In this document: positions 1-20,379 of the stretch, piece after piece
Layout: each line of letters begins with the position of its first letter
Position numbering within the stretch: the first letter of the stretch is position 1
Virus record (IMG/VR): IMGVR_UViG_3300031825_000010
Location: 1 to 61,488 of that record
Source: a virus
DNA length: 61,488 nucleotides
Reading direction: 5' to 3' (one strand)
Notes under the pieces: generated by a model
What the model was told of the DNA's origin: nothing
Databases searched by the model: none
The model's input: the letters and a program-made list of their open reading frames with translations, nothing else
Position numbers and translations under genes: made by a program

Positions 1-127
1 CGAACAACCTAACGCTTTACCCGCACAAGGAAGATGAGTTTTGGCTGTGGGTATCGACTTGGGCGCTTTTTATCACTAAGCCGTCAGACCTTGGATATGA
101 AGACACCGGCTACGATTTGCCGCCGCT
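1..127. repeat. Terminal duplication identical to 61362..61488 (circular-assembly overlap, or terminal redundancy)
   Basis: Read base by base: the first 127 nt equal the last 127 nt. A single ORF reads through the junction in frame. Confidence 0.95.
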
Positions 128-1895
128 GGATGTGCGCTATCACGAAATTCCTGTCGATCACGGAAAGGCCGGATTTGACCGCGATGGACAAGTCCTATTC
201 CTTCGGGAAGCGTCTGTCGGTCTGGCAGATGCCGCTAAAGAAAAACGGGACAGCATCGATGTTCGTGTGGCAAAAGCGAAGGAAATCATCGAATCTGATC
301 CAGATGCGCATTTCATCCTGTGGCACGATTTAGAGGACGAGCGCCACACGATCAAAAAGGCGATGCCGGAAGTCGTGGACATTTACGGGAGCCAGGATTA
401 CGACATTCGTGAACAGCGCGTGATCGACTTCTCGAATGGAAAGATCAAATACTTTGCTACGAAAAAAGAGTTGTCCGGATCCGGATGCAACTTCCAACGT
501 CATTGTCATCGGGCAATCTTTGTCGGCATCGACTATCAATTCAATGACTTCATCCAAGCCATTCACCGGATTTACCGCTTTCTCCAGACGGAGAATGTCA
601 TCATCGACATCATCTATATGGAGAGCGAGAAGGAAATACTGCAGACGCTCCTGCAGAAGTGGAAGCAGCACGAACACATGATTGAGAAGATGATCGAGAT
701 CATCCGGAAGTATGGTCTTTCCGGAACATCGGTTATCGACAAACTGGCCAGAAGCATAGGAGTTGAGCGTGTGAAGATCGAGACGGAATATTACACCGCG
801 GTCAATAACGATTGTGTTCTTGAAACGGCCGAGATGGAATCAGAAAGCGTAGGATTAATTCATACCTCCATCCCATTCGGCAACCATTACGAGTATTCAG
901 CGAGCTACAACGACTTCGGTCACAACGAGGATACAGAAAGGTTCTTCGAGCAGATGGACCACCTCACGCCTGAACTTCTTCGAGTTCTAGTGCCCGGCCG
1001 GGTGGCGGCGATACACGTCAAAGATCGAGTTCTCTTCGGTAACACGACCGGCGACGGCATGCCGACGATTGAAGAGTTTCACGCCGATTGCATAAAACAC
1101 TACAAGAAACACGGCTTCCGGTACTGCGGGATGATTACGGTTGTGACCGATGTCGTCCGCGAGAACAATCAGACCTATCGTCTCGGCTGGGGCGAGGTTT
1201 GCAAAGACGGATCGAAGATGGGTGTCGGTTGTCCGGAATATATTCTCCTATTCCGTAAGCTGCCGAGTGATACAAGCACGGCGTATGCGGACGTCCCGGT
1301 CGTCAAGAACAAGGAAGACTATACCCGAGCTCAATGGCAGTTGGACGCACATGCGTATTGGCGATCGAACGGTGACCGGCTGATGACGAAAGAAGAACTT
1401 GTTTCCCTGCCTGTCAGTAAGCTGCAGGCGGCTTATCGTAAGTTCTCGCGCAATTCAGTTTACAGCTATCAAGAGCATGTCGAACTTGCGAAAAAACTCG
1501 ATAAAGATGGAAAGTTGCCGGCCTCATTTATGGTTGTCGCTCCGGGTAGTTGGACGGATGAGGTATGGGATGATGTTAACCGGATGAAAACGCTGAACAC
1601 ATCACAGAGTCAGAAACGGCAGCAGATGCACGTCTGCCCTCTCCAGATCGACATCGTCGAGCGGATCATCAACCGCTATTCCAATCCTGGGGACGTTGTA
1701 TATGACCCTTTTGGTGGCCTTATGACAGTCCCGGTAACAGCGGTGAAGATGGGCCGAAAAGGTTTGGGATGTGAGTTGAATGTCGATTATTTCCGCGATG
1801 GTGTTGGATATCTGAAAGCAGCCGAAGCGGAAGTCGGAGTGCCGACATTGTTTGATCTTGAAGATTTGGTTGTCGGTACTGGAGGGTTGAAATGA
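1..1895 (+). CDS. SNF2-family helicase / DNA methyltransferase fusion, C-terminal part (continues from 60737..61361 across the junction)
   Basis: The frame is open from the window start (codons at 3, 6, ...). 625+1895 nt = 840 codons in frame. Helicase C-terminal motifs (QRHCHRAIF, QAIHRIYR) are followed by MTase motif IV-like TSIPF and motif I DPFGGLMT, the beta-class order. Confidence 0.85.
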   Translation, partial: NNLTLYPHKEDEFWLWVSTWALFITKPSDLGYEDTGYDLPPLDVRYHEIPVDHGKAGFDRDGQVLFLREASVGLADAAKEKRDSIDVRVAKAKEIIESDPDAHFILWHDLEDERHTIKKAMPEVVDIYGSQDYDIREQRVIDFSNGKIKYFATKKELSGSGCNFQRHCHRAIFVGIDYQFNDFIQAIHRIYRFLQTENVIIDIIYMESEKEILQTLLQKWKQHEHMIEKMIEIIRKYGLSGTSVIDKLARSIGVERVKIETEYYTAVNNDCVLETAEMESESVGLIHTSIPFGNHYEYSASYNDFGHNEDTERFFEQMDHLTPELLRVLVPGRVAAIHVKDRVLFGNTTGDGMPTIEEFHADCIKHYKKHGFRYCGMITVVTDVVRENNQTYRLGWGEVCKDGSKMGVGCPEYILLFRKLPSDTSTAYADVPVVKNKEDYTRAQWQLDAHAYWRSNGDRLMTKEELVSLPVSKLQAAYRKFSRNSVYSYQEHVELAKKLDKDGKLPASFMVVAPGSWTDEVWDDVNRMKTLNTSQSQKRQQMHVCPLQIDIVERIINRYSNPGDVVYDPFGGLMTVPVTAVKMGRKGLGCELNVDYFRDGVGYLKAAEAEVGVPTLFDLEDLVVGTGGLK

Positions 1896-2365
1896 AGCTA
1901 TTCAATTTTGCTTTAGGAATTATTATCGGAGCCGGGTTGATTTTCTTTCAACCTTCCGATGCCGCGCCGGATCCTGAAATCAAGACGGTCGTCCAGACAA
2001 AATACATTACCAAAACCGAATACGTGAAAGTCAACCAGACAGAGCCAATGGAGATGACGGTTACGGCTTACACAGCGGGGCCAGAGTCAACGGGGAAGCG
2101 TCCGGGGGATAAAGGATATGGCATCACTTTCACAGGTACTCAGGCTCGTCCTGGAGTGTGCGCGGTAGACCCCAACTACATTCCACTCGGCTCATCGCTC
2201 TACGTCGAGTCGTATGGTTACTGTCGGGCGGAAGATATCGGAGGGAAGATCAAAAAATGGCACATAGATGTATTTATGGAAAATGTTGACGAAGCCTTTG
2301 AGTTCGGCAGGGAAAAGAGAAAAGTTTGGATACTGAATGACTATGGAAAGGAAGAAGATTCATGA
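1892..2365 (+). CDS. Secreted/membrane-anchored 3D-domain (RlpA-like DPBB) cell-wall protein
   Basis: N-terminal hydrophobic segment FALGIIIGAGLIFF. The C-terminal region reads VTAYTAGPESTGK..GVCAVDPNYIPLGS..DIGGKIKKWHIDVF. ATGA overlap with the upstream gene. Confidence 0.7.
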   Translation: MKLFNFALGIIIGAGLIFFQPSDAAPDPEIKTVVQTKYITKTEYVKVNQTEPMEMTVTAYTAGPESTGKRPGDKGYGITFTGTQARPGVCAVDPNYIPLGSSLYVESYGYCRAEDIGGKIKKWHIDVFMENVDEAFEFGREKRKVWILNDYGKEEDS

Positions 2366-2844
2366 ATAATGCGGATTCGTTGCCTGAAAGATTCCGATTA
2401 AAAATTAATTTCACTGAATCTTGTTGGTTGTGGAAAGCGGGAAAAACAAGCGGCGGATATGGTTACTACAAGTCGAAAGGCAAACAATTTCCTGCTCACC
2501 GTTTTTCGTGGATACATTTTAAAGGTTCTATCCCAGAAGGGTTGTTCGTTTGCCATAAATGTGATGTGCGAACGTGCGTGAATCCGGATCATCTATTTCT
2601 CGGGAATAATCAAGAAAATACAGCAGATAGGCATAACAAAGGAAGAACTGCAAGCCTCGAACGAAATGGGAACTCCAAACTAACAAGTAAAGAAATAGAT
2701 GAAATAAGAAGGTTATATCGACCCGGACACGCCCCTTTCAAAAGTGAGTTTTCAACAAAATCGTTAGCAAAAAGATTTGGTGTAAGCCAAACACATATTT
2801 GTAGAATTGTAAATCAACAAAGTTGGAGGAGTGGTGTAATTTGA
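2362..2844 (+). CDS. HNH homing endonuclease
   Basis: CWLWKAGKTSGGYGYY..AHRFSW..VCHKCDVRTCVNPDHLFLGNNQENTADR, a typical HNH_3 pattern. Confidence 0.85.
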   Translation: MNNADSLPERFRLKINFTESCWLWKAGKTSGGYGYYKSKGKQFPAHRFSWIHFKGSIPEGLFVCHKCDVRTCVNPDHLFLGNNQENTADRHNKGRTASLERNGNSKLTSKEIDEIRRLYRPGHAPFKSEFSTKSLAKRFGVSQTHICRIVNQQSWRSGVI

Positions 2845-3014
2845 AGCGAATTCGCGGAATTAATCCAACACTCAAACAGGCCATGATCATTCAAGACAAC
2901 GGCCATGATTATCGAGACTATCTTGTTAAAAAGGTGTTGAGCGATCGTCTGGAGATCGTTCACCGATTTACCGGGGAAAGTAAAAACGCATTCTTCGAAA
3001 CGGTGAAAGTATGA
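2823..3014 (+). CDS. Hypothetical small protein (start uncertain; TTG 2841 possible)
   Basis: ORF packed between flanking genes with a stop/start overlap. No recognisable motif. Confidence 0.35.
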   Translation: MEEWCNLKRIRGINPTLKQAMIIQDNGHDYRDYLVKKVLSDRLEIVHRFTGESKNAFFETVKV

Positions 3015-3310
3015 GTCGCAGCCAAGCGATTATCGACTTCATCAGCCAGTATATTCAAAAGAATGGTTACTCACCGACAACCAGAGAAATTGCAGCTGCT
3101 GTCGGTTTGAGTTCACCGTCAACGGTAACAGGACACCTTAACCGCCTCAAGAAAAAGGGACTCGTTGATTTTGAACCTTATGAAGTTCGCACGATACGGA
3201 TAGTTGATCATACACATTCGGACGAGCTTCCCGTTGTACTGGAAAAGCAGCATGGCGTTCCAACATCAATAAAGTGGCAGGGAAGGATTTATAGATATGA
3301 TCCGGGGTGA
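3011..3310 (+). CDS. LexA N-terminal winged-helix DNA-binding domain protein (no peptidase domain)
   Basis: GYSPTTREIAAAVGLSSPSTVTGHLNRLKKKGLV matches the LexA_DNA_bind pattern. The protein is only 99 aa. Confidence 0.7.
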   Translation: MSRSQAIIDFISQYIQKNGYSPTTREIAAAVGLSSPSTVTGHLNRLKKKGLVDFEPYEVRTIRIVDHTHSDELPVVLEKQHGVPTSIKWQGRIYRYDPG

Positions 3311-4206
3311 AAAATGTGTCTGACATTAAGTGGATTAAGATAACCACCGACATGTTTGAAGATGAAAAAATAGACTTTATTTCAAGTCTTCCGGAAGCTG
3401 ATTCAATCGTTGTTATCTGGATTCGTCTTCTTACTTTAGCTGGAAAATGCAATGCCGGTGGCTATGTATTTCTTACCGAGAAAATTCCATATACAGATGA
3501 AATGCTTGCTCACAAGTTCAAAAAGCAGCTAAATACAGTGAAACTTGCCTTAGAAACATTCCGAAAATTGGAAATGATCGAGATGGACGAACACGGAATT
3601 TTCCTTTCGAAATGGGAGAAGCATCAGGAGGTAGACAAGCTCGAAAGAATCAAAGAACAAACCCGTGCTCGTGTTGCGGATCACCGAAACAGAAAGAAAC
3701 TTCAACTCATTGGCGGTAACGTTACAGTAACGGACGCGGTAACGGAAAGTAACGCAGTAGAACTAGAATTAGAACTAGATATAGATAAAGAAAAAGATAT
3801 TAAAAACACTATGTCTGATTTTGAGCAGTTTTGGGCTGCATATCCCAGAAAACTACGAAAACAAGACTCAATCAAAATCTGGGACAAAATCTTGAAAGAC
3901 AAAAAGAATCCCGCGAATCCTGTGGACATCATCACTGCGGCAAGTAATTACGCAGCAGAGTGCAGGCGAAAGGGAACGTTACCTGATTATATGATGCATC
4001 CGCCCACCTTTTTGAATAAGGATCGATGGAGAGATTACCTCACGATTGACGAGAGTGGTATATCGCCTGCTCAGAATAGACAAATTCGTCCAAGCGGTAA
4101 GCCGGATATGCCAGTTGTCAAGGACAACGGACCGACAAAAGAAATAACTCCCGAGGAACGTGAAAAGATGCGGGAACTGGCGAGGAAGTTGAAAGATGGT
4201 AAATGA
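3307..4206 (+). CDS. Phage replisome organizer
   Basis: The N-terminus IKWIKITTDMFEDEKIDFISSLPEADSIVVIWIRLLTLAGKCNAGG is the replisome-organizer N-domain pattern. Confidence 0.75.
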   Translation: MKNVSDIKWIKITTDMFEDEKIDFISSLPEADSIVVIWIRLLTLAGKCNAGGYVFLTEKIPYTDEMLAHKFKKQLNTVKLALETFRKLEMIEMDEHGIFLSKWEKHQEVDKLERIKEQTRARVADHRNRKKLQLIGGNVTVTDAVTESNAVELELELDIDKEKDIKNTMSDFEQFWAAYPRKLRKQDSIKIWDKILKDKKNPANPVDIITAASNYAAECRRKGTLPDYMMHPPTFLNKDRWRDYLTIDESGISPAQNRQIRPSGKPDMPVVKDNGPTKEITPEEREKMRELARKLKDGK

Positions 4207-4513
4207 CCTTTCTTACCTGTTGATAGATCCTCGGCCAAATCTTCCGGATACAAACTTATGGGTGAAACTGCTGCGGGCGATCCCTTCGCTTGAAAACCGT
4301 GATACTGCAGAAAAGCTTCACAAGCGCATATGGACTTTGCGGAGCATCGGTGTGTCGCTGAAATACATCGGCGGCGTATGGAGATTCGTTCCGATCTTGG
4401 ATGATACAGGCGGTTACAAGTCGGAGAAGGAGTTTGAAGAGGATAAAAAACTTTTCCTGACTCCGTTTGCTGCTGAAATATCTGATCTTCTCAGGAAGGT
4501 AACAGGACAATGA
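4196..4513 (+). CDS. Hypothetical protein
   Basis: ORF overlapping its neighbours in an operon. Confidence 0.5.
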   Translation: MVNDLSYLLIDPRPNLPDTNLWVKLLRAIPSLENRDTAEKLHKRIWTLRSIGVSLKYIGGVWRFVPILDDTGGYKSEKEFEEDKKLFLTPFAAEISDLLRKVTGQ

Positions 4514-4752
4514 ACAGATATCGATATGCCGAAATGGAGGACATCTATCAAAGCTATGAATGGATTATTCGGGAGCATCTAACCAAACTCGATTTCTTAT
4601 CTAGAAAGATTTTTTCCGACATGGGAGCAGAAGGCATAAAGCATTCAATCGCCGTGGAATACGTTCAGCGAAAAGTAGCTGAATTGGCAGAAGAGATCAT
4701 AAGGGAAGGAGATGCGTCAGATTGCGCTCCACGATCAAAATCAGGGAAGTAG
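4510..4752 (+). CDS. Hypothetical protein
   Basis: ORF with an ATGA overlap to the upstream gene. Confidence 0.45.
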   Translation: MNRYRYAEMEDIYQSYEWIIREHLTKLDFLSRKIFSDMGAEGIKHSIAVEYVQRKVAELAEEIIREGDASDCAPRSKSGK

Positions 4753-4913
4753 AGGCCAGCATAAAAGATTTGGCAAGGATTTATAAGCCGGCAGTTTCTG
4801 AGGTCGATCAGTTCGTTAAACGGTTCGTTCGAAAGTACAACATAACCAAGGGTTATGAGAACGATCTGAAGCAGATTGTGCTGAACGAATTGAAATCTAT
4901 CGGCCAAGCGTAA
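4722..4913 (+). CDS. Hypothetical protein
   Basis: ORF on the same strand, overlapping the end of the previous gene. Confidence 0.4.
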   Translation: MRSTIKIREVEASIKDLARIYKPAVSEVDQFVKRFVRKYNITKGYENDLKQIVLNELKSIGQA

Positions 4914-4979
4914 GGCACAAAATCATAACAAATTTACGGGACATACAGTGTTCCGGCGACAACGTATCATTCTGAAACA

Positions 4980-4991
4980 GAACATATGTTC
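4980..4991. promoter_or_regulatory. Cheo-type SOS box (GAAC-N4-GTTC)
   Basis: aGAACATATGTTCc is a perfect palindrome 29 nt upstream of the dnaN-like start codon. Confidence 0.6.
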
Positions 4992-5019
4992 CAAAAATCG
5001 ACATTCGAGGTGAAAAATC

Positions 5020-6123
5020 ATGAAATTCCAAATTGACAAGCACGTTCTTGTAAAACCTTTGAACCAAGTTTCCAAGGCTCTCCCCGGGAGAACAACCATT
5101 GAAATTCTGAACGGGATTCTGTTTGAAGTAAACGAAAAAGGATTATCTCTGACGGCCGGCGACTCCGCAACATCGATCATGGCGACAATCTCTCCGGATG
5201 ATTTCCAACTGGAGCAGCACGGAGCGATTGTTCTGCCTGGTAAAAAGATCGTCGATATCGTCACAAAAGCGCCGGAAGATATCAGCTTTGAAATCAACGG
5301 ATTGCAAGTTACCGTTCGAAGCGGAAAGTCAAAGTTTGAAATGACGGGACTTGATGCAGAAGAGTATCCGGCCTTTGATTATGGATCTGGAACGGAAATT
5401 ACAGTTCCCGGAGAAACGCTGCGGTCGATGATTAACAAAACCATCTTCGCTACATCGAAGAAAGAAGAAACGCCAATTCTAACCGGAATTAACTTCAAAT
5501 TTGAAGAAGGCAAACTAATTCTCACGGGAACAAACCGGCATCGTCTGGCCAGGAGCGCTGAGAACATTGAAAACGATTCTGTATTCTCGGTTGTAATTAA
5601 AAGCGATAGTTTGGCAGAACTGCTGAAGCTGATTGACGCCAAGGAGGAAGCGAAAATATCCTTCAACGGCCATAAGTTCGTTGTGAAAACGAGCGATTTC
5701 ACATTCGGCTCATCGATTCTGGAAGGTTCATTTCCGGATGTGGACAGGATTATCCCGAATGATTTTAACAGCGTTGTAACGGTGAATACATCAAAGTTAC
5801 TCGGCAGCTTGGAGCGAGTTCTGATCGTCGCCGCCGAAGAAAAGACGAATCAAATTTTGATCACGGTAGGCGAAGAAGTGCAGATTGATTCCAAAACAGG
5901 CAGCGGCTTTAACGCTTCAGAATCGCTGGAGATCAAGGAGAAGAAAGGTCCTGACTTCCGCTTTGCGGTTAACGCCAAGTACGTCCATGAAGCGCTGAAA
6001 ACCGTTGAATCCGAGGAAGTCTCTATCCACTTCATCCAAGATTTAAGCCCAATCATTTTCAAAGGCTCCCAAGAAAATGATGATCTGCAGCTTATCCTTC
6101 CATACAGGACTGGCGTTCAATGA
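5020..6123 (+). CDS. dnaN: DNA polymerase III beta subunit (sliding clamp)
   Basis: MKFQIDKHVLVKPLNQVSKALPGRTTIEILNGILFEV..LSLTAGDS, 367 aa. Typical DnaN N-terminus and length. SD GAGGTGA lies upstream. Confidence 0.9.
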   Translation: MKFQIDKHVLVKPLNQVSKALPGRTTIEILNGILFEVNEKGLSLTAGDSATSIMATISPDDFQLEQHGAIVLPGKKIVDIVTKAPEDISFEINGLQVTVRSGKSKFEMTGLDAEEYPAFDYGSGTEITVPGETLRSMINKTIFATSKKEETPILTGINFKFEEGKLILTGTNRHRLARSAENIENDSVFSVVIKSDSLAELLKLIDAKEEAKISFNGHKFVVKTSDFTFGSSILEGSFPDVDRIIPNDFNSVVTVNTSKLLGSLERVLIVAAEEKTNQILITVGEEVQIDSKTGSGFNASESLEIKEKKGPDFRFAVNAKYVHEALKTVESEEVSIHFIQDLSPIIFKGSQENDDLQLILPYRTGVQ

Positions 6124-6659
6124 GCAAATACGGCGCAAGGAAAGTCATTGTGACGGAAGACGGAACGATCTTTGATATGGAGACCATCAATAAATTCCAT
6201 TTGATTGTCGAAGGGAAAATCTTCGACAGCCGTATGGAGGGATCTTATTACCAAGAACTGCTCTGGATGAAACGGGATGGAGCGATTCGTGAAATTGAAT
6301 GCCAACCAGTTTTCATCCTGCAAGAAAATCCAAAGATCAAATACGTTGCGGATTTTCGGATCACATTCTCAGACGGCACTCAGATCATCGTGGATGTGAA
6401 AGGGTTTGAGACTCCTGCATTTAGGATGAAGGCCAAACTGTTCAAAGCGAAGTATCCCGACATCGAGCTGCGAGTCATTACAAAGTATTGCGGCCAATGG
6501 ATGACGGTCGCTGAGGTCAAGAAGCAGAAATCAGCAAATAAACGAGCATTCAACAAACTTATCAAACAAGCTGAGAAGAAAGGACAGATAACCAATGAGC
6601 GAAAACCAAAACATCGAACATCAACATCCGGAAGAAGATCCAAACCAAAGACGGTTTGA
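6120..6659 (+). CDS. DUF1064-family putative nuclease
   Basis: KYGARKV..DGTIFDSRMEGSYYQEL..YVADFRITFSDGTQIIVDVKGFETPAFRMKAKLFKAKYP. Confidence 0.7.
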   Translation: MSKYGARKVIVTEDGTIFDMETINKFHLIVEGKIFDSRMEGSYYQELLWMKRDGAIREIECQPVFILQENPKIKYVADFRITFSDGTQIIVDVKGFETPAFRMKAKLFKAKYPDIELRVITKYCGQWMTVAEVKKQKSANKRAFNKLIKQAEKKGQITNERKPKHRTSTSGRRSKPKTV

Positions 6660-6714
6660 TATCGACAATGACGTTCTTATCCTTCCGCCATTCCCGGAGA
6701 TTGGAGACTGATCT

Positions 6715-8880
6715 ATGAACGGATTAGCAGAAGTGAAAACTGAAAAGACGGTCGCCGTTCTTTATGGCGGAGCTGGTGGATACAGCAAGGGAATTACTCA
6801 GTCAAAGTCTGAAATGTACGGAAAAGTGTACAACTTCAGAATGCTTTGCAGCATCGATTACGATCCCGTAGCGAATCACAATCATGATCTTTTGCTTGGC
6901 GATAATCTATCGGTGACCATGGACCTTTTTGATAGGGAGCAGTACATAGCATTCCATGGTCAGGAGCCGCCAGCAGATTGGAAGGAAACAACTGGTTGGG
7001 AAATATGGAACGCGTTTGGCCAAGAAGTTCCGGACCTCATTTTTCTAAGCCCACCATGTAAGGGGTTCAGCGGACTGTTGCCTAAGAAGTCGGCGGAATC
7101 GATGAAATACCAGGCGCTCAACAGACTCACGCTGCGCGGGCTTGAGTTGGTGTTAAAAGCATGCATTCGATACGGCGAAGACTTGCCATCATTTATTCAT
7201 TTCGAAAATGTGCCAAGGATCCAAACCAGAGGGAAAGACCTTCTCTCAAAGATTCTTAGGCTGCTTAAACGGTTTGGTTTTGAAACCAACATGCGGGCTG
7301 ATCATAACCTTGGGGAAATTGGCGGACTCGGGCAGAGCCGCCCCCGTTTCCTCATCCTTGCCCGGAATAAACAAAAGATTCCGAACTTTACGTACTTGCC
7401 GCCAAAGAAACGATTACGAACGATCGGGGAAATTATCGGACCGTTACCAATGCCGGGGGACACGGTTAGAGGCGGGAAGATGAACAGGCTGCCAATGCTT
7501 ACTCGAAAATCATGGGAACGTCTGGCCGTCATACCTGCAGGTGGGGATTGGAGAGATTTGAATAAATCCGATTGGCAAAACCTCCGACTTTTTCATGAAC
7601 CAAGAGGTGGCGGAGCGTGGGGAGTGCAGGCTTGGAATGAACCGGGAAAAGCCGTTATCGGCAATGCCAAAATACACGGAAGCAATGCCAGTGCGGCGGT
7701 CAGCGACCCGAGGTTAGGGCTTGACGGAAACGGTATGGCGAACATTTACCGGATGCAAAGATTCGAAGAAACCGCAACGTGTGTCACCGGAGCAGTAGGA
7801 CCAAGTAATGGCGCTCCATGCGTCTCTGACCCACGATTAAAAGAACGTGAAGGCAGGCATCCTGCAGTATACCGTATTGTTCGAGTGGACGAGCCTGCTC
7901 CTTGTGTAACCGGCACACGATTCGGAAGCGGAGCAATTGCCATTGCTGATCCATGCACTCATACGAAATTTAACCATGCATTTAAAGTCAGCGACTGGAA
8001 TGAAACAGGTGGAACAGTGGCCGGGGGAACAGGGCCATCGAGCGGAGCGCACGTCATAGCTGATCCGAGGTTTGACGAAAACAGTTCGATGTACAATGGC
8101 GGGTACAAGGTGACTGAATGGGATGAGGTAGGGGGAACCGTTACGACCGGTGGCAGTCCGAGCAGCGGAGCACATGTGATTGCCGATCCGAGAGTTAAGA
8201 CAGACCTCATGCCCGACAGCTACGGCGTACAGGATTGGGATGATACTGCCAAGACGGTACGGGGAGCATCTCGAATTATGAACTCTCCAGCTTCTATAAG
8301 CGATCCGAGAGTTAACGACCGACCAGGACGGTATACCGATCAATACCGAATGCAGGCGTTTGATGAAACGGCAGCGACCGTAACGGGAGTAACGGACATC
8401 CAAGCCGGGGCGCAGTTAATCGCGGACCCTAGAATGAATTGCTCACCGAGATCCGGAACAATGGGTGTTCAGGATTGGAACGAGCCGTCCGTAACGGTTA
8501 CTGGGAGCATGGACATTCACGCAGGAGAAGCAGCTGTAGCCGATCCGCGCATCCCGGACGAGAATGAACGATGCGTCATGGTCATTATTGCGGAAGATGG
8601 GACCTGGCACAGACCGCTTACAACATACGAACTCAGTCAGCTTCAGGGGTTCCCGACACACTTACCAGATGGCCGTCCGTTCCAGCTTGAGAAATGCAGT
8701 GATTCCAAGGCAAGGGAATACATCGGAAATGCTGTTCCGCCTGCAGCTGCTGAAGCAATGGGGAATGTAATCCTGACTGCAATCGCCATGGCCGAGGCTG
8801 GCATCACTTTTGAATTTGGTCATGAAGAAGTATGGGTTATGCCTCAAGGGGAACAACCTGAAATAACGATTCTACATTAA
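6715..8880 (+). CDS. DNA (cytosine-5) methyltransferase with an expanded, eight-fold repeated variable region
   Basis: Motifs: I LYGGAGG, IV SPPCKGFS, VI ENV, VIII QSRPRF, X GNAVPP. Eight ~40-aa repeats ending in DPR lie between motifs VIII and IX. Confidence 0.9.
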   Translation: MNGLAEVKTEKTVAVLYGGAGGYSKGITQSKSEMYGKVYNFRMLCSIDYDPVANHNHDLLLGDNLSVTMDLFDREQYIAFHGQEPPADWKETTGWEIWNAFGQEVPDLIFLSPPCKGFSGLLPKKSAESMKYQALNRLTLRGLELVLKACIRYGEDLPSFIHFENVPRIQTRGKDLLSKILRLLKRFGFETNMRADHNLGEIGGLGQSRPRFLILARNKQKIPNFTYLPPKKRLRTIGEIIGPLPMPGDTVRGGKMNRLPMLTRKSWERLAVIPAGGDWRDLNKSDWQNLRLFHEPRGGGAWGVQAWNEPGKAVIGNAKIHGSNASAAVSDPRLGLDGNGMANIYRMQRFEETATCVTGAVGPSNGAPCVSDPRLKEREGRHPAVYRIVRVDEPAPCVTGTRFGSGAIAIADPCTHTKFNHAFKVSDWNETGGTVAGGTGPSSGAHVIADPRFDENSSMYNGGYKVTEWDEVGGTVTTGGSPSSGAHVIADPRVKTDLMPDSYGVQDWDDTAKTVRGASRIMNSPASISDPRVNDRPGRYTDQYRMQAFDETAATVTGVTDIQAGAQLIADPRMNCSPRSGTMGVQDWNEPSVTVTGSMDIHAGEAAVADPRIPDENERCVMVIIAEDGTWHRPLTTYELSQLQGFPTHLPDGRPFQLEKCSDSKAREYIGNAVPPAAAEAMGNVILTAIAMAEAGITFEFGHEEVWVMPQGEQPEITILH

Positions 8881-8897
8881 GGAAAGGCGGTACAGAA

Positions 8898-9896
8898 ATG
8901 AGTGATAAAAGCAAGATCGAATGGACAGATGCTACGTGGAACCCGGTCACCGGATGTACGAAGGTGTCGGAAGGCTGCCGGAATTGCTACGCTCTTACTT
9001 TTGCGGAACGGTTTCGCGGGACACCCGGGCATTATTTCGAAAATGGATTCGATATCACGCTTCGGCCTAATAAAATGCTGGAACCACTGAAGTGGCGAAA
9101 AGCGAAGAAAATTTTTGTGAACAGCATGAGTGACTTGTTCCATCCGGAAGTACCGGACGATTTCATTGATCAAGTGTTCGGCGTTATTCTCGCAAATCAT
9201 GTCCTAGACCGGCAAGCCGAACACACATTTCAACTATTAACAAAACGGCCCGAACGCATGCAAGAATATCTCGGAGCCGGACCGGACGTACTGCTCGAAC
9301 GCTGGGGAGAATCACTCGACGGCGTTGTCATCATGGATAATCCGGATGTTTGTTTCTCCGAATATGTGGACCATTTCTTGGACAAAGATGAATTTTTCCC
9401 GCTGCCTAATCTCTGGATTGGCACCAGTGTCGAGAACCAGAAGGCAGCTGTCGAGCGAATACCGCATCTACTTATGACACCGGCGGATGTTCGGTTCCTG
9501 TCATGTGAACCATTACTCGGATCAGTTGATTTTTGGGATGTACCTAGTCCGAGAGACGGCCAACCGTTCGAGGTGCTTCAGCCGCTCGGATCGGATTGGT
9601 CAGGCATCAACTGGGTCATTGCTGGCGGTGAGAGCGGCCATGGAGCTCGTCCGGTTCATCCGGACTGGATTAGGTCTCTACGAGATCAATGTCAGGCTGC
9701 AGGTGTGCCGTTCTTCTTCAAACAATGGGGGGAATGGTGGCCATACCCCGATGAGATCAACAAAATGACGGTCAATCGAAACACAAAAGAAGGTGGGAAG
9801 GTCAAGCGCTTTGAGAATTGGTACTTCGAACGGAACGGCAAGAAAGCGGCTGGACGCATACTTGATGGGCAAACGTGGGACGAGTTGCCCCAATAA
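8898..9896 (+). CDS. Phage Gp37/Gp68-family (DUF5131) protein
   Basis: KIEWTDATWNPVTGCTKVSEGCRNCYA at the N-terminus and IAGGESG..RP near the C-terminus. Confidence 0.8.
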   Translation: MSDKSKIEWTDATWNPVTGCTKVSEGCRNCYALTFAERFRGTPGHYFENGFDITLRPNKMLEPLKWRKAKKIFVNSMSDLFHPEVPDDFIDQVFGVILANHVLDRQAEHTFQLLTKRPERMQEYLGAGPDVLLERWGESLDGVVIMDNPDVCFSEYVDHFLDKDEFFPLPNLWIGTSVENQKAAVERIPHLLMTPADVRFLSCEPLLGSVDFWDVPSPRDGQPFEVLQPLGSDWSGINWVIAGGESGHGARPVHPDWIRSLRDQCQAAGVPFFFKQWGEWWPYPDEINKMTVNRNTKEGGKVKRFENWYFERNGKKAAGRILDGQTWDELPQ

Positions 9897-9956: not shown

Positions 9957-10157
9957 TCATGATCGAAAATGAATTGAGACAGAATCTACTTTTGCAATTG
10001 TTTCTCCAGTTGCTGCATTCGCAATTGAAACATCATGGCCGACAACGCACTTCGAATCCAAGATATTTGTTATTAGTGACATGGCATGATCGGCTCCAAT
10101 TAATCCGCCAACCCATCTTCTTTGAACATCTTGAATTTCGTCAAATTTAGTTTTCAT
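9957..10157 (-). CDS. Hypothetical small protein co-transcribed with the XRE regulator
   Basis: 66-aa ORF overlapping the XRE gene end by 11 nt and followed by the terminator. Confidence 0.5.
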   Translation of the reverse strand: MKTKFDEIQDVQRRWVGGLIGADHAMSLITNILDSKCVVGHDVSIANAATGETIAKVDSVSIHFRS

Positions 10158-10374
10158 TTACGTCCTCCTCGGGAATATATTCAACAAGTTCATCAATCGA
10201 TTTAACGTTGAGAGCCCTTGCTATTTTTTCGAGATTTTCCGGTGACCACTGTTTAGCTTTGTTATTGACCATATCGCTCACAGTATTCGGTCTAATGCCC
10301 GTTGCAATGTGAAGCTTATACATAGACCATTCCGGTCGTTTCTCAAGTATCTTATCAATCTTTAATCGGATCAC
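10147..10374 (-). CDS. XRE-family helix-turn-helix transcriptional regulator
   Basis: MYKLHIATGIRPNTVSDMVNNKAKQWSPENLEKIARALNVKSIDELV. GTG start with SD GGAGGAGG. Confidence 0.8.
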   Translation of the reverse strand: MIRLKIDKILEKRPEWSMYKLHIATGIRPNTVSDMVNNKAKQWSPENLEKIARALNVKSIDELVEYIPEEDVNEN

Positions 10375-10395: not shown

Positions 10396-10424
10396 AATGT
10401 AACAAAAAAAGTTTAACGAATCAA
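10396..10424 (-). promoter_or_regulatory. Putative sigma-A promoter of the XRE gene
   Basis: Minus strand reads TTGATT-17 nt-TACATT, upstream of the SD and GTG. Confidence 0.45.
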
Positions 10425-10434
10425 GTTAAAAGTA

Positions 10435-10463
10435 TTGACGCTTAACGAAATTCGTTATATTAT
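10435..10463 (+). promoter_or_regulatory. Putative promoter of the small-ORF/ribozyme operon with an embedded palindromic operator
   Basis: TTGACG-17 nt-TATTAT. The spacer contains the perfect palindrome TAACGAAATTCGTTA (10443-10457). Further TTAACGAA half-sites are nearby. Confidence 0.55.
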
Positions 10464-10502
10464 TAGTACAGACGATAAACGTTAAACGAAATGAGTTATT
10501 AA

Positions 10503-10697
10503 GTGGAGGGAATGACGATGATCTCAAAAGCGCTGCAAGCCGCTGGATATGATTGTGAACCGACGAGAGAGAACCTGATCGAATGCTTCATGGATTACAT
10601 TGCTGCAGGTTACTGGTCGAACTCAGATGATCTGATGGACGATTACAATTGCGGGTTGTTGACGGACAATCAAATCTGCCGGGCATTGATGCAGTAA
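10503..10697 (+). CDS. Hypothetical small protein (start 10503, 10512 or 10518)
   Basis: First ORF after the promoter, with SD GGAGGG. Confidence 0.5.
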   Translation: MEGMTMISKALQAAGYDCEPTRENLIECFMDYIAAGYWSNSDDLMDDYNCGLLTDNQICRALMQ

Positions 10698-10735
10698 TTA
10701 ATAAGCCTATAAGGGCAGGGAGGTATAAGGGGATT

Positions 10736-10957
10736 ATGGTCATAAAAGAAGATGGATATCAGCCCTACTTCCGCGCCTTCATATTACATCAGAGATTGAA
10801 GATAGGGGACGAGGTTACGGGTCATGAATACATCACCTGGAACATGAATAAATGGAGTGAGTGGCGGAAGCTAAATGGCATACCACAGCATTTCCCAGCA
10901 ACACCAGAACATCATCGCGCTTTTGGAAAATGGCTATTTGAGACAATCCCCGCCTGA
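10736..10957 (+). CDS. Hypothetical small protein (73 aa) whose stop codon lies in a hammerhead core
   Basis: ATG 10736 follows SD GGGAGG. The ORF ends ..ETIPA-TGA-TGA inside CUGAUGA. Confidence 0.55.
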   Translation: MVIKEDGYQPYFRAFILHQRLKIGDEVTGHEYITWNMNKWSEWRKLNGIPQHFPATPEHHRAFGKWLFETIPA

Positions 10958-11024
10958 TGATGACCGGAGGGAAACCGGTCGAAACCATCTCGTTGACTTC
11001 AACGAAATGGTCGCGGATATCCGC
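10947..11024 (+). ncRNA. Hammerhead ribozyme motif, type I topology (copy 1)
   Basis: CCGC-CUGAUGA(10954-60)-U-GACCGG/CCGGUC-GAAA(10981-84)-11-bp stem III-GUC|GCGG. Predicted cleavage is after 11012. Confidence 0.85.
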
Positions 11025-11047
11025 AAAAAAACTTGGGAGTGATAACA

Positions 11048-11191
11048 ATGCAAATAACATTCAAAGTTTCAATGGAAACCAAATCCGGGAAAGTGGTTTC
11101 GGGGATCGTGAAAGCAACCAATGAAAAGATGGCCCAGCTTATCGCCTCTAAGAAGTTTAAAGGGAACAAGAACATCACCGTTTCCGCCTGA
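11048..11191 (+). CDS. Hypothetical small protein (47 aa; absent from the ORF track because it is under 60 aa)
   Basis: SD GGGAG, then ATG 11048. MQITFKVSMETKSGKVV..NITVSA-TGA-TGA, with the stop inside the copy 2 core. Confidence 0.5.
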   Translation: MQITFKVSMETKSGKVVSGIVKATNEKMAQLIASKKFKGNKNITVSA

Positions 11192-11258
11192 TGATGGCTG
11201 GATGGACACCAGCCGAAACCATGTCGTTGCTTCTAACGATATGGTCGCGGATATCCGC
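11181..11258 (+). ncRNA. Hammerhead ribozyme motif, type I topology (copy 2)
   Basis: CCGC-CUGAUGA(11188-94)-U-GGCUGG/CCAGCC-GAAA(11215-18)-10-bp stem III-GUC|GCGG. Predicted cleavage is after 11246. Confidence 0.85.
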
Positions 11259-11280
11259 AACAAACAGAGGAGGGAATCAA

Positions 11281-11454
11281 ATGTACAATGTATCTTTCGA
11301 TGGCATTCAAACCAAACTGCAACGCGCATCGGAGAAAGAGGTTAAAAATTTCCTTTCGCTCTTCAACTGCAAACCGAGAGTCGAGGAAAATGTAGGCATC
11401 GTCGGAAAATGGATCAGCAAAGGTGGAAGGTATATTGATGTAACGTCCGCCTGA
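11281..11454 (+). CDS. Hypothetical small protein (57 aa)
   Basis: SD GGAGGG, then ATG 11281. Ends ..IDVTSA-TGA-TGA inside the copy 3 core. The upstream part of track ORF 11191..11454 overlaps ribozyme 2. Confidence 0.55.
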   Translation: MYNVSFDGIQTKLQRASEKEVKNFLSLFNCKPRVEENVGIVGKWISKGGRYIDVTSA

Positions 11455-11513
11455 TGAGTCTGGAGGGACACCGGACGAAAGACCGTCGTGATGACGGACT
11501 CGCGGATATCCGC
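11444..11513 (+). ncRNA. Hammerhead ribozyme motif, type I topology (copy 3, canonical core spacing)
   Basis: CCGC-CUGAUGA(11451-57)-GUCUGG/CCGGAC-GAAA(11477-80)-stem III-CUC|GCGG. Predicted cleavage is after 11501. Confidence 0.8.
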
Positions 11514-11617
11514 TTAACGTTCGCCAAGCACGGTGGACGCTATGATGGCCCGGTGCAATTCGGCCACTTTACATAGATGCTCTATGAAAATCAAATAAGA
11601 TCACGGAGGCAGAGAGA

Positions 11618-11809
11618 ATGAAAGTATGGGTAACTGTCTATGAGTACAAGGGGTATAAAATCGAAGTCCTAAACGGTGCTGGAATCAACGATCCCATGAA
11701 TTACAGAACGAACCCTCCACTTCCCGGACAAGATCATGATTGCAATTGTTTGGCTTGTACTTTCTCAACGATCGGAAATGCAATCGAAGCCATCGACAAA
11801 TTGAATTAA
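11618..11809 (+). CDS. Hypothetical small protein
   Basis: SD GGAGG, then ATG; 63 aa. Confidence 0.5.
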   Translation: MKVWVTVYEYKGYKIEVLNGAGINDPMNYRTNPPLPGQDHDCNCLACTFSTIGNAIEAIDKLN

Positions 11810-11811
11810 GC

Positions 11812-11832
11812 TCAGGAAAATTTTCCTTACCT
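11812..11832. repeat. Conserved palindromic element, copy A (TCAGGAAAATTTTCCTTACCT)
   Basis: Near-identical 21-mers occur at 18796-18816, 30556-30576 and 42003-42023. The core AGGAAAATTTTCCT is a perfect palindrome. Confidence 0.8.
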
Positions 11833-11853
11833 CATATGAAGGGAGAGATAAGA

Positions 11854-12033
11854 ATGATTAACCTCTCAGAATTGGACAAGCAACCAGCAGAAGTACAAGA
11901 GGCTGCCGCGTTTTATGCATCGTTCGGGGTAACGACAACGGCCTACACCAAGGAAGAACGCGAACACTTCTACACGATCCTGGAGAACGCCGGATTGATT
12001 GAGAAGGTCGGTGAGTTCTATGGAACAAACTAA
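11854..12033 (+). CDS. Hypothetical small protein (59 aa)
   Basis: SD GGGAGAG, then ATG 11854, 22 nt after palindrome copy A. Confidence 0.5.
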   Translation: MINLSELDKQPAEVQEAAAFYASFGVTTTAYTKEEREHFYTILENAGLIEKVGEFYGTN

Positions 12034-12199
12034 GGAACCAGATCATTCCCGCTGCCTAGTTTTCCGCCGAAAGCTTAAAAATCCGCACCACCGCCGGAGC
12101 GGAATAGGTCCAAAATGTAAGCAGAAACAACATGCACGCAGAGTTGAAAAAGCAACACAGATCGAATTCAATTTCTAAACGGAAGGGTGGGGCGAAACG

Positions 12200-12883
12200 A
12201 TGTCTCATCAAACATTTTGGAAGCCAGAAAAACAAGTGAAGGAAAAACCGCGTAATAGTCTCCTTAACCGGAAACCGAAGGAGAGAAAGGAAGTTCCAGA
12301 GTGGAAGAGGGGCATTCTTTCGCATCATCTCTCCAATCCATCGAGAGCAGATCGAGCAGAGTTCCCGAGAGATGTAATCGCGGCGGCTATCGAACGGTCG
12401 GGCGGAATCTGCCAGTACTGCAAGAAGGTTCCCTGCACAACGACGCATCACGTCAAGGGTCGCGGCGGGAGGGATGGACGGGGAGTCCTCTCCAATGCCT
12501 ATCGTGTTTGCGGAAAATGTCATATTGAGATCGAAGGGAGCGAAGAAAAGAAACAAGAGATCATCGAATTATATCGGCAATTATACGGCGAGTTCTTCTG
12601 GTTTGATCAGCAAGATTGGGATGAATACGGGCGCAAACAAGCGGCATCACGAACGGCAGAGGAAGAACAAAAACAACGCATGGAACGGATTAACCCTGTG
12701 ATTGATTTGTTGGCAGCGGCGGCTGGAAGAAGATTAAAAGCCGGAGAAATCCGTTTGATTGATGGGATGGACGATAGAGAAGTTGCAATATTCGCAAAAC
12801 TCATGTCCGATGTTGTTTCTGCTGGTTCAGATCCGGTTAAGCCAAAAGGTTCTGAAGCATATGGACATTATTTTGAAGATTAA
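12200..12883 (+). CDS. HNH-nuclease domain protein
   Basis: GGICQYCKKVPCTTTHHVKGRGG..VCGKCHIEIE shows the CxxC..HH..CxxCH arrangement. Confidence 0.7.
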   Translation: MSHQTFWKPEKQVKEKPRNSLLNRKPKERKEVPEWKRGILSHHLSNPSRADRAEFPRDVIAAAIERSGGICQYCKKVPCTTTHHVKGRGGRDGRGVLSNAYRVCGKCHIEIEGSEEKKQEIIELYRQLYGEFFWFDQQDWDEYGRKQAASRTAEEEQKQRMERINPVIDLLAAAAGRRLKAGEIRLIDGMDDREVAIFAKLMSDVVSAGSDPVKPKGSEAYGHYFED

Positions 12884-16623: not shown

Positions 16624-17172
16624 ATGAAAAATGAATATGAGGTACGCGGGGATGTAACAGCCATTTTTATTAAATGCCATGGGAGAATATTTGAAACAAT
16701 AATTGATACGTGCGACTTACCGCTTGTGAAATCATATCCAACCAGATGGTATGGCTATTTACATCGTGATCGAGTGTATGTCGTAGGAAATATAAACAAA
16801 GGGAATGAAAAATCCAGGCAACTTCACCGTTTGCTAGTGGGTGATCCAAAAGGTTTAGTAATAGATCATATCAATCACGATACATTGGATAACAGAAGAA
16901 GTGTAAATCTTCGCGTTGTGACCAATGGAGAAAATTTGCAAAATCTTAAGATTAAGAAAAACAATACAAGTGGACATAGGGGAGTTGATTGCGTAAAAAC
17001 AAAAACAACATGTGTTAGATGGAGAGCGAGGGTTAAAATAAATGGACGTGTAATACAAAAGAATTGTCTTTCAAAAGAAGAAGCTATCGCCTTGACGATT
17101 GAATGGAGATCAAAGTATATGCCATATTCACAAGAGGCTATGCAATTGAAATCCGTAGTAACAACGAAGTAA
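16624..17172 (+). CDS. HNH endonuclease with AP2-like DNA-binding domain (homing endonuclease type)
   Basis: HRLLVG..VIDHINHDTLDNRRSVNLRVVTNGENLQN, then SGHRGV..RWRARVKINGR..EEA. Confidence 0.8.
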   Translation: MKNEYEVRGDVTAIFIKCHGRIFETIIDTCDLPLVKSYPTRWYGYLHRDRVYVVGNINKGNEKSRQLHRLLVGDPKGLVIDHINHDTLDNRRSVNLRVVTNGENLQNLKIKKNNTSGHRGVDCVKTKTTCVRWRARVKINGRVIQKNCLSKEEAIALTIEWRSKYMPYSQEAMQLKSVVTTK

Positions 17173-18844: not shown

Positions 18845-19549
18845 ATGGGACGCCAAAGAGATCCGAATAGAGACAAAGCAAAAGAAATCTATATCGCATC
18901 AAAAGGCGAAATCAATCTCATTGACATCGCCGCTCAGCTTGGGGTATCTGATGGAACGGTAAGAGGGTGGAATGCGAAGGACAAGTGGGAGAACCTGATT
19001 TTCGAACAACCAAAAGTGACAATAAAGGAAAAGATGCATGCATTAAAGCAAGTTGCAATGCGTATAGGAATGATTGGACCTTTGAGAGAAATTTGCGATT
19101 CACTTGGGGATAAAGTTGAAATAAATAAGCCGTTAGTATTTCTGACGATTTGCCAGTACCTCAGAGATGATATATCAATATGGCAGAAATACGCTTGTGC
19201 AATGATCCTTGACTATTACATCCCAAAATGGAGAGAAATTGTACCGGAAGTACTCGGCCCAATCATAGATCGTGACTCAAAAGAAGTTAGGAAATGGCGC
19301 AAAAGAGTCCTCGAAAGAGATGGTTTCAAATGTGTTGAGTGCGGGAACAAAGAGAACTTAGAGGCGCATCATATCTTGCCATGGTCAACTTTTCCCGATT
19401 TAAGAACAGACATAAATAATGGGAAAACTTTGTGCAACGAATGCCATGCAGGAGAACATGAGCATGACGGCGTTGAACATCTCATATTGTCACGATCAAA
19501 CAAAACAAACAACACTAACCATAATTTGTCTGTGGGGTGTTGTGGATGA
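18845..19549 (+). CDS. TerS-like HTH / HNH endonuclease fusion (terminase-associated HNH)
   Basis: The N-terminus IDIAAQLGVSDGTVRGWNAKDKWE parallels the TerS N-terminus. The C-terminus reads GFKCVECGNKENLEAHHILPW..LCNECHAGEH. Confidence 0.75.
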   Translation: MGRQRDPNRDKAKEIYIASKGEINLIDIAAQLGVSDGTVRGWNAKDKWENLIFEQPKVTIKEKMHALKQVAMRIGMIGPLREICDSLGDKVEINKPLVFLTICQYLRDDISIWQKYACAMILDYYIPKWREIVPEVLGPIIDRDSKEVRKWRKRVLERDGFKCVECGNKENLEAHHILPWSTFPDLRTDINNGKTLCNECHAGEHEHDGVEHLILSRSNKTNNTNHNLSVGCCG

Positions 19550-20379
19550 AGAGCGGCAGCGAATTGAATAAAAAAGCGATACGTTCCGAATTCGAAAGGA
19601 CTGATATTTCATTAAAGAATCTAGCCGACAAATATTCCATCAACTACCAGACTATCAAGAGTTGGAAGTCACGCGAGAAATGGGATAAGGTTGCAACCGA
19701 ATCAAAAGAAGTTGCAACCAAAGCCGAGAAGTTGCAACCGAAGAAAGGTGCGCCTAGCGGAAATAAGAACGCCGTTGGAAATGAAGGTGGTGCTCCGTTA
19801 GGTAATAAAAATGCTGTCGGACACGGCGCTCCTCTTAGAAATTCAAATGCAGTTTCGCACGGGTTGTTCCGCAACTTTCTGCCAGACGACGATGAAACTC
19901 GGGAGATTTATGATGCAGCCGGAAGCATTAGCCCGATCGATATTTTATGGGAGAATATTCAGCTTAAGTTCACAGCTATCATCAGAGCCCAGAAGATCAT
20001 GTTTGTTAGTGACCATAATGACATGACGAAGGAAATCCGCAAAACGAAGCTTATCGACCAGGAAGGATTCGCAATGGATGAAAAGGAATGGGAAATTCAA
20101 TTCGCGTGGGACAAGCAGGCTACGTTCCTAAATGCTCAATCCAGAGCTATGAGCACTCTAACATCTATGATCGGTAAATATGAAGAGATGTGCCGGTTAG
20201 GATGGGCAGATGAGCAACAAAAACTACGGATTGAGAAGTTGAAGTTGGAGGTCCATAAACTTGCCAATCCTGATGATGGGGATGCAGACGAGGAACTTAT
20301 TCAAGATTGGGTTGGGGCGGTGTTAGGAGATGGCGACGGAGAGAGTGAAGTCGACGGAGACGAAGAAGGAGATACGTAG
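19537..20379 (+). CDS. terS: Terminase small subunit (ATG 19546 is the likely start)
   Basis: HTH YSINYQTIKSWKSREKWD plus repeats GAPSGNKNAVGN / GAPLGNKNAVGHG / GAPLRNSNAVSHG. Sits immediately upstream of terL. Confidence 0.75.
   Translation: MLWMKSGSELNKKAIRSEFERTDISLKNLADKYSINYQTIKSWKSREKWDKVATESKEVATKAEKLQPKKGAPSGNKNAVGNEGGAPLGNKNAVGHGAPLRNSNAVSHGLFRNFLPDDDETREIYDAAGSISPIDILWENIQLKFTAIIRAQKIMFVSDHNDMTKEIRKTKLIDQEGFAMDEKEWEIQFAWDKQATFLNAQSRAMSTLTSMIGKYEEMCRLGWADEQQKLRIEKLKLEVHKLANPDDGDADEELIQDWVGAVLGDGDGESEVDGDEEGDT
19690..19739 (+). repeat. Three phased GTTGCAACC repeats inside terS (candidate pac/TerS-binding site)
   Basis: GTTGCAACC at 19690, 19711 and 19731, spaced 21 and 20 bp. Each contains the palindrome GTTGCAAC. 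Confidence 0.4.

Follow-up and report, generated by a model that had tools for sequence, protein, structure and literature searches.

Three copies of a motif resembling the hammerhead ribozyme lie close together in the viral contig IMGVR_UViG_3300031825_000010, and this raises the question of whether they are ribozymes that process a phage transcript or structured or coding repeats of another kind. The complete record of 61,488 nucleotides was analyzed and is called the window in the following. The initial annotation had interpreted the three sites as tandem type I hammerheads with a role in RNA processing inside an operon of small open reading frames (ORFs), and this central reading is supported by the core nucleotides, by the covariation of the helices, and by a covariance model (CM) constructed in this study. 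Judged from the sequence, the three copies are probably active type I hammerheads, which would cut a polycistronic phage transcript into monocistronic units.

Three hammerhead motifs with complete cores

All three copies are on the plus strand and share the pattern CCGC-CUGAUGA-(U)-hairpin-GAAA-hairpin-UC-GCGG. The order of the elements from 5' to 3' is the first strand of stem I, the core, the stem II hairpin, GAA, the stem III hairpin, UC, and the second strand of stem I. Stems II and III are closed by loops and stem I is open to the flanking RNA, which is the type I topology. The positions of the three motifs, as obtained from the sequence and the descriptor explained below, are those already given in the initial annotation:

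10950-11016, plus strand: hammerhead copy 1, type I, with the cut predicted between C11012 and G11013; stem I 10950-10953/11013-11016, CUGAUGA core 10954-10960, extra U 10961, stem II 10962-10967/10975-10980, GAA 10981-10983, stem III 10984-11011, C17 11012.
11184-11250, plus strand: hammerhead copy 2, type I, with the cut predicted between C11246 and G11247; stem I 11184-11187/11247-11250, core 11188-11194, extra U 11195, stem II 11196-11201/11209-11214, stem III 11218-11245 (12 pairs), C17 11246.
11447-11505, plus strand: hammerhead copy 3, type I, with the cut predicted between C11501 and G11502; stem I 11447-11450/11502-11505, core 11451-11457 without an extra U, stem II 11458-11463/11471-11476, stem III 11480-11500 with an A/A mismatch at 11482/11498, C17 11501.

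Each copy possesses the complete hammerhead core, CUGAUGA, GAA followed by A, and then U and C, including the A15.1-U16.1 pair and a residue other than G at position 17, as had been annotated, and the G10.1-C11.1 pair is also kept in all of them. The loop II sequences, AGGGAAA in copy 1, AUGGACA in copy 2, and AGGGACA in copy 3, and the distances of 234 and 255 nt between the predicted cut sites likewise agree with the earlier description. Stem III had been placed correctly in every copy, and the 11 pairs of copy 1 include one C/A mismatch, but the A/A mismatch of copy 3 had gone unmentioned. Copies 1 and 2 have a homologous unit of about 85 to 90 nt in common, which extends from CCGCC to about 20 nt past the cut; the ORFs flanking this unit are unrelated.

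The minimum free energy (MFE) fold has the hammerhead shape for copies 1 and 2, with z values of -3.3 and -4.7, respectively. For the isolated motif of copy 3, the hammerhead fold reached -19.1 kcal/mol and the MFE fold -20.5 kcal/mol, so that the hammerhead is 1.4 kcal/mol above its competitor; copy 3 is the weakest of the three. Another topology, with stem I closed by the downstream CCGC, was rejected because no CUGAUGA follows that strand.

A relaxed descriptor was used to evaluate how specific these matches are. It demanded CUGANGA, an optional inserted base, a stem II of at least 3 bp, GAAA, a stem III of at least 4 bp that is closed by A-U, a residue other than G at position 17, and a stem I of at least 3 bp. 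When both strands of the 61-kb window were scanned, exactly three sites were found, and these were copies 1 to 3. In 200 dinucleotide-preserving shuffles, the mean was 0.035 sites per shuffle, with a maximum of 1. The CM was built from 33 relatives, none of them from the window or from Paenibacillus. With filters off, it assigned 58.4 bits to copy 2 (E value, 7e-13), 52.5 bits to copy 1 (2e-11), and 47.5 bits to copy 3 (4e-10), although these scores are partly circular because the relatives had been collected with a pattern derived from the window. Despite having no sequence in common with the training relatives, stems II and III of the three copies fit the model. The window yielded no fourth copy and no ribozyme of another class; the CM site ranking next, at 12089-12114 (13.4 bits; E value, 0.18), had only stem I-like ends without a core and was discarded.

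Covariation and core conservation among the relatives

A scan with the exact pattern of the shared sequence yielded 19 viral contigs and 76 genomic loci, the latter mainly from Nostocales cyanobacteria, Paenibacillus and Cohnella, and metagenome-assembled genomes of Clostridia. The descriptor identified 89 hammerheads in those loci (designated by L numbers), frequently in arrays: L009 had 11 in 13.5 kb, L002 had 3, and L005, L006, L016, and L091 had 4 to 5 each, with the CM raising L005 and L006 to 7 each. The relatives in phage contigs form arrays of 3 to 11 copies, and they adjoin pistol and twister-sister ribozymes. The CM recovered 116 copies, 106 of which were distinct, when applied to about 740 kb of DNA from phages, cyanobacteria, Paenibacillus, and Clostridia.

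Among these 106 distinct sequences, 96.5% of the helix cells contained standard pairs, compared to 68.1 ± 0.8% with shuffled 3' partners and 24 to 50% with partners slid by 1 to 3 columns; fitting of the underlying alignment to the model raises the pairing somewhat, but the margin is still very large. The covariation of the stems, which the initial annotation had noted for the three copies, holds throughout the family, with compensatory two-sided changes in 15 of the 17 pairs. The A15.1-U16.1 pair was present in 106 of 106 relatives and the G10.1-C11.1 pair in 102 of them.

A fairer test of the core is provided by 23 distinct array-mates from other contigs, which had not been selected by the search pattern. 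Positions C3, G5, A6, G8, A9, G12, A13, A14, A15.1, and U16.1 were invariant in all of them, N7 was U, C, or A, position 17 was C or A and never G, and U4 was changed to C in two. Stem I covaried among these array-mates (CCCAC/GUGGG, CCUAC/GUAGG, CCCCG/CGGG, and CCGU/ACGG). Since only N7 and H17 vary, apart from the two U4-to-C copies, the profile of variability is that of the hammerhead consensus. In the 89 descriptor matches, H17 was again never G; 87 had C at this position and 2 had A. The two deviating copies, L005:3389-3467 and L006:3942-4009, have the core CCGAUGA with intact helices and are probably inactivated members of otherwise intact arrays.

This conservation also bears on the possibility that the resemblance to hammerheads is incidental, and that the repeat encodes protein in the other frame (...PPDD...RNH.V...MVADIR...) or consists of plain regulatory hairpins or terminators. 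Second-frame ORFs at 10875-11042, 11121-11345, and 11454-11576 do cross the copies and have the peptide MVADIR in common, and a consensus scan flagged two hairpins with T runs, albeit on the minus strand only; on the plus strand, no terminator was called, and no U tract follows stem III. The changes between copies 1 and 2 are compensatory at the RNA level (GACCGG/CCGGUC versus GGCUGG/CCAGCC) and alter the peptide. Moreover, the stems covary over the 106 relatives while only the hammerhead core stays fixed, and the low chance expectation of the full descriptor applies to this explanation, too, which makes it exceedingly unlikely. The alternative-frame ORFs with MVADIR are a by-product of the conserved RNA rather than evidence for coding, and they could mislead gene callers.

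The surroundings of the relatives contained several other RNA elements. The array of 11 hammerheads is located in IMGVR_UViG_3300020577_004875 (L009, a locus of 13.6 kb), with all copies on one strand and with stem I sequences of several kinds. At 5277-6148 of L091, hammerheads and five tRNA genes are interleaved. Pistol ribozymes were found at 1279-1355 of L005 and 799-874 of L006, and a twister-sister ribozyme was found at 5419-5489 of L047, all with Rfam gathering scores and within a few kilobases of hammerheads of this clade, which miss such scores. The L047 locus, from Paenibacillus medicaginis, also contains a BsrG-like type I toxin RNA at 865-1110. Many Nostocales genomes carry single, highly similar hammerhead copies with the tail GCGGAUUGUGUCCAAAGCAAUC(CGC), in loci among L021 to L095, for instance, at 4182-4256 of L024 and 3870-3944 of L031, and this Nostocales hammerhead resembles a separate dispersed element. 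A pattern scan of metagenomes for window-like arrays returned nine loci, none of them an array: six were single Paenibacillus-type hammerheads, and three were chance matches. A blastn search of positions 10400-12000 against phage GenBank records gave no match.

Contact between loop II and the tail, and the inserted U

The tail directly 3' of stem I has complementarity to loop II, and both sides of this pairing covary across the family. On average, the longest run of Watson-Crick pairs linking loop II and tail was 4.18, compared to 2.86 ± 0.09 with permuted partners (0/500). Covarying pairs were GACAC/GUGUC, GACCC/GGGUC, GGCU/AGCC, GGUU/AACC, AGCU/AGCU, GUGGUG/CACCAC, and GGAUA/UAUCC; the last one, of 5 bp, is found in the closest Paenibacillus relatives and is in the same register as GGA/UCC of the window. 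Pseudoknots occur in hammerheads of all three topologies and are critical for fast cleavage (Perreault et al. 2011, PMC3088659).

When a base is inserted between A9 and G10.1, which is the case in 45 of the 89 descriptor matches, it is a U in 45 of 45 members. The earlier suggestion that the extra U after A9 in copies 1 and 2 is tolerable is in agreement with this finding and with data for the plus-strand hammerhead CChMVd(+) of chrysanthemum chlorotic mottle viroid, in which the added A10 was tolerated with a moderate loss in rate and the exchange A10U led to a 3- to 4-fold-faster reaction (De la Pena and Flores 2001, as summarized in PMC3705267).

A possible hairpin at the 5' end of the predicted 3' products

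The exact 12-mer GCGGATATCCGC is present at all three copies and would form the 5' end of each 3' product:

11013-11024, plus strand: 12-nt tail of copy 1, GCGGAUAUCCGC in the RNA.
11247-11258, plus strand: 12-nt tail of copy 2, the same 12-mer.
11502-11513, plus strand: 12-nt tail of copy 3, the same 12-mer.

The sequence GCGGAUAUCCGC is composed of the 3' strand of stem I, the pseudoknot partner UCC, and then CCGC, which is able to pair back on GCGG. Cleavage would make stem I intermolecular, and the 3' product would snap into the 5'-terminal hairpin GCGG-AUAU-CCGC ahead of the ribosome-binding site (RBS). This refolding would disfavor religation, so that cleavage should be effectively irreversible. 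In 53 of 103 distinct relatives, the first four bases of the 3' product have an exact complement 3 to 24 nt downstream, compared to 14.3 ± 3.3 in random downstream windows and 22% with composition-matched permuted 4-mers, and within L009, the complement tracks the differing stem I sequences. Stabilization by 5' stem-loops is known in Bacillus. By analogy with it and with the RNase J1 route taken by the 5'-OH product of the glmS ribozyme, the tail hairpin would shield the new 5' end.

Position of the ribozymes between small genes

The three copies delimit ORFs of 47 and 57 amino acids (aa) within phage DNA, the first of which is called as a gene in public data, and the ribozymes are located on the coding strand of the ORFs:

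10736-10957, plus strand: ORF of 73 aa, ending in UGA at 10955-10957, which corresponds to U4-G5-A6 of copy 1.
11048-11191, plus strand: ORF of 47 aa; RBS GGGAG at 11035-11039, start 35 nt past cut 1, stop in the core of copy 2.
11281-11454, plus strand: ORF of 57 aa; RBS GAGGAGGG at 11267-11274, start 34 nt past cut 2, stop in the core of copy 3.
11618-11809, plus strand: ORF of 63 aa; start 116 nt past cut 3.

In three of three copies, the upstream ORF terminates at U4-G5-A6 of the core and has another in-frame UGA behind this stop, and a strong RBS with an ATG is positioned within 34 to 35 nt of cuts 1 and 2. Within the family, a stop codon in the core was found in 39 of 101 cases, compared to 19% for random TGA triplets, so that this layout is favored but not obligatory. 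A homolog of the 63-aa ORF in the Paenibacillus loci L017 and L059 begins about 23 nt past the hammerhead (tblastn, 52% identity). None of the small ORFs matched a Pfam or PHROG family, and they are singletons in a collection of 15 billion proteins.

Probable activity of the three copies

Several results weigh against active ribozymes, in addition to the partial circularity of the CM scores and the inflated pair counts mentioned above. The putative pseudoknot of the window copies has only three contiguous pairs, GGA/UCC, and shortening of a pseudoknot from 6 to 4 bp decreased the rate about 20-fold (Perreault et al., PMC3088659). Stem I has only 4 to 6 bp, and when the tail is included, the nearest-neighbor MFE favors the tail hairpin by 0.6 kcal/mol in all three copies. 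Copy 3 has the mismatch in stem III and a competing fold. In the family, neither the stop codon in the core (39%) nor the 5' hairpin (51%) is universal, frequent as both are. Finally, a scan of the whole window with Rfam 15 gave zero hammerhead matches at gathering level (RF00163, RF00008, RF02275-7, and RF03152), and local permissive scans produced two matches below the thresholds, both for copy 3 only: 17 to 19 bits with RAGATH-1-hammerhead (RF03152; best, 19.1; cutoff, 56.3) and 14.9 bits with Hammerhead_1 (RF00163; cutoff, 34). Matches of sR23, RNA-OUT, and ZFAT-AS1 in the window were weak chance matches.

The initial annotation had suggested a check with the Rfam covariance models and had listed the lack of a significant match among the outcomes speaking against its proposal. 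At the curated thresholds, this is formally what was found, although the CM of this study was strongly positive. Interpretation of the Rfam result needs to consider that in 14 related loci with dozens of canonical hammerheads, about 40 of which were missed, no Rfam hammerhead model reached the gathering level either, while the same scan did detect the pistol and twister-sister ribozymes beside them. Because Rfam also misses canonical relatives, the negative result reflects the coverage of seeds and models, and the clade to which these copies belong is effectively outside the Rfam seeds. Since a simple CM recovered 116 copies, automated annotation probably undercounts phage hammerheads.

The main rival explanation is that the copies are derived from hammerheads but weak or dead and are kept as structured intergenic spacers, for instance, as 3' stabilizers or recombination joints. 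The 3-bp pseudoknot, the competition of the short stem I with the tail hairpin, and the mismatch and alternative fold of copy 3 would all fit such a state, the family does include decayed U4-to-C copies, and the unit of about 85 to 90 nt common to copies 1 and 2 between unrelated ORFs is compatible with spread by recombination. On the other hand, the catalytic nucleotides and the A15.1-U16.1 and G10.1-C11.1 pairs are intact in all three copies, and neutral decay would strike these first. Loop variants with the same weakness, GGACA and GGAAA, recur in the independent contigs L003 and L067 with intact cores, and the inserted U is a base compatible with activity. Weak or dead copies are therefore rather improbable.

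Possible events on the phage transcript

If the copies are active, each ribozyme would fold during transcription. The stem I of 4 to 6 bp (CCGC/GCGG) would close a three-way junction with the stem II and stem III hairpins around the core, and GGA of loop II would contact UCC of the tail and hold stems I and II in parallel. Self-cleavage after C17, at 11012, 11246, and 11501, would then release monocistronic units of 234 and 255 nt. The upstream piece would keep its stop codon inside the ribozyme core and end in a compact body of stems II and III with a 2',3'-cyclic phosphate, and the downstream piece would begin with a 5'-OH. The likely net effect would be that stability and translation of neighboring small genes become uncoupled.

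A further-reaching proposal, possible but unlikely, is that this arrangement acts as an inherent conformational switch in wide use among a large type I clade missed by Rfam. The 3' strand of stem I would be common to the ribozyme and the downstream hairpin, cleavage would irreversibly yield a protected 5'-terminal stem-loop just before the RBS, and with the upstream stop codon in the core, ribosome traffic and folding of the ribozyme would gate each other. The individual dosage of tiny phage genes would be set this way.

In an extreme variant of the switch, the units of 234 and 255 nt would be circularized. More generally, the ribozymes may cleave, and the units may subsequently be joined by an RtcB-type ligase or by ribozyme ligation into circular or spliced RNAs. 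RtcB uses 5'-OH and 2',3'-cyclic-phosphate ends as substrates, the units would possess such ends, and by design, the stem I halves at both ends of a unit can pair with each other. The possibility had been raised for prophage arrays, and products of this kind were sought but not found (Perreault et al., PMC3088659). The predicted 5' hairpin would sequester the 5' end from stem I, and no ligase gene was seen adjoining the array in Pfam and PHROG searches. Joining of the units is accordingly very unlikely, and cleavage into separate monocistronic units is preferred.

Genomic context of the array

Genes for replication, terminase, portal, tape measure, and integrase are present on this metagenomic phage contig. 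The replication module extends from 117 to 9896, packaging and structural genes start at about 18.8 kb, and the integrase, CI-like, and Cro-like genes are located at about 49.6 to 52.4 kb. The following features precede or follow the array:

10147-10374, minus strand: small helix-turn-helix (HTH) gene of the Cro/C1 type, divergent from the array (Pfam HTH_26, 1.7e-13).
10435-10463, plus strand: promoter-like site TTGACG-17-TATTAT, a pattern match with 10 of 12 consensus positions.
11518-11590, plus strand: conserved leader that separates copy 3 from the next ORF, with two hairpins and then CACUUUACAUAGAUG.

The site at 10435-10463 is a candidate for the start of the array transcription unit; promoter-like sites in this region were no more frequent than in shuffled sequences. 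The initial annotation had described the operon as early and XRE-controlled, which goes beyond these data, because the array follows a divergent small HTH gene and a promoter-like site between the replication and packaging modules and lies at a considerable distance from the integrase/CI/Cro switch. The order HTH, hammerhead, small ORFs, HNH, and ASCH is kept in the Paenibacillus prophage loci L089, L067, L050, L008, and L079, each with a single hammerhead. This conserved order with a single hammerhead points to a Paenibacillus-like host and to a local amplification of the ribozyme unit in the window phage.

The conserved leader has a counterpart on the minus strand of L089 at about 1700-1775, in which both hairpins keep their pairing through five double changes compared to the window. 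A shorter form, with a palindrome plus the motif, is located just 3' of the hammerhead in seven Paenibacillus-type loci (L028, L038, L069, L079, L109, L110, and L115). The element consists of a hairpin or palindrome with a TGCA center, followed by (C)CUUUACAUAKAU...CUUUGAAAAU. A sigma-A promoter was considered and rejected as an explanation of the motif, with 9 to 16 nt from TTTACA to an A/T-rich hexamer and no −10 site conserved at 17 nt. The leader is unlike a canonical sigma-A promoter or terminator and may represent an operator, a promoter of unusual type, or an RNA leader. A scan of viral contigs with CCACTTTACATAGATG yielded 11 loci, all of them unrelated chance matches.

Outside the array, terS, the gene for the small terminase subunit, is apparently split (18845-20379). 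In ORF 18845-19549, the TerS N terminus is joined to an HNH nuclease domain, and the remainder of TerS is matched by ORF 19537-20379. This suggests an HNH insertion in terS. Two more HNH genes are located at 12200-12883 and 16624-17172.

Comparison with known systems

The window copies have the same core and three-helix junction as Hammerhead_1 (RF00163) and RAGATH-1-hammerhead (RF03152). The RAGATH-1 model aligned copy 3 in the correct register, but the upstream hairpin of RAGATH-1 is absent in the window. With the CChMVd(+) hammerhead, as described in the account given by PMC3705267, copies 1 and 2 share one extra nucleotide between A9 and G10.1. In contrast to the viroid, this base is naturally a U here, and about half of the members of a large clade from bacteria and phages have it (45/89); moreover, the window copies are type I motifs in the mRNA of a DNA phage, while CChMVd(+) is a type III hammerhead in a circular RNA replicon.

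The system of the glmS ribozyme and RNase J1 in Bacillus is similar in that a ribozyme resides in a Firmicute mRNA and the fate of the downstream 5'-OH product sets expression, according to the outline in PMC6765202. There, cleavage is ligand dependent and the 5'-OH product is degraded (Collins et al. 2007, as cited in PMC6765202), whereas cleavage in the window would presumably be constitutive, and the foldable 5' hairpin should protect the product. For bacterial and phage hammerheads in general, a 2019 review regarded the role as largely unknown and the purpose as unresolved (PMC6765202).

The closest correspondence exists with the prophage arrays from Clostridium scindens, Azorhizobium caulinodans, and Agrobacterium tumefaciens. 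In prophages, single genes or short gene blocks often have several hammerheads at their flanks, for which transcript processing was proposed as the function; three tandem arrays were cleaved in vitro as predicted, one of them also in vivo in Escherichia coli (Perreault et al. 2011, PMC3088659). As in those arrays, several hammerheads on the coding strand of a phage region are each positioned between single genes or short blocks, a putative pseudoknot between stem I and stem II would take the place of a loop-loop contact, and the proposed role is the processing of a long transcript to gene-length mRNAs. Unlike those arrays, the window copies are all of type I, have the upstream stop codon in the core, and carry a U after A9 in two cases; their putative pseudoknot has 3 bp, and their predicted 3' product would open with a palindromic hairpin. 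The host lineage differs as well and is Paenibacillus-like, as indicated by the synteny with L089, L067, L050, and L079. Since arrays of this type had been described by Perreault et al. in 2011, the locus is a further example of a known array type and not a new system. With three ribozymes, two tiny cistrons, stop codons in the cores, and predicted 5' hairpins, it offers a compact test bed for the role of hammerheads.

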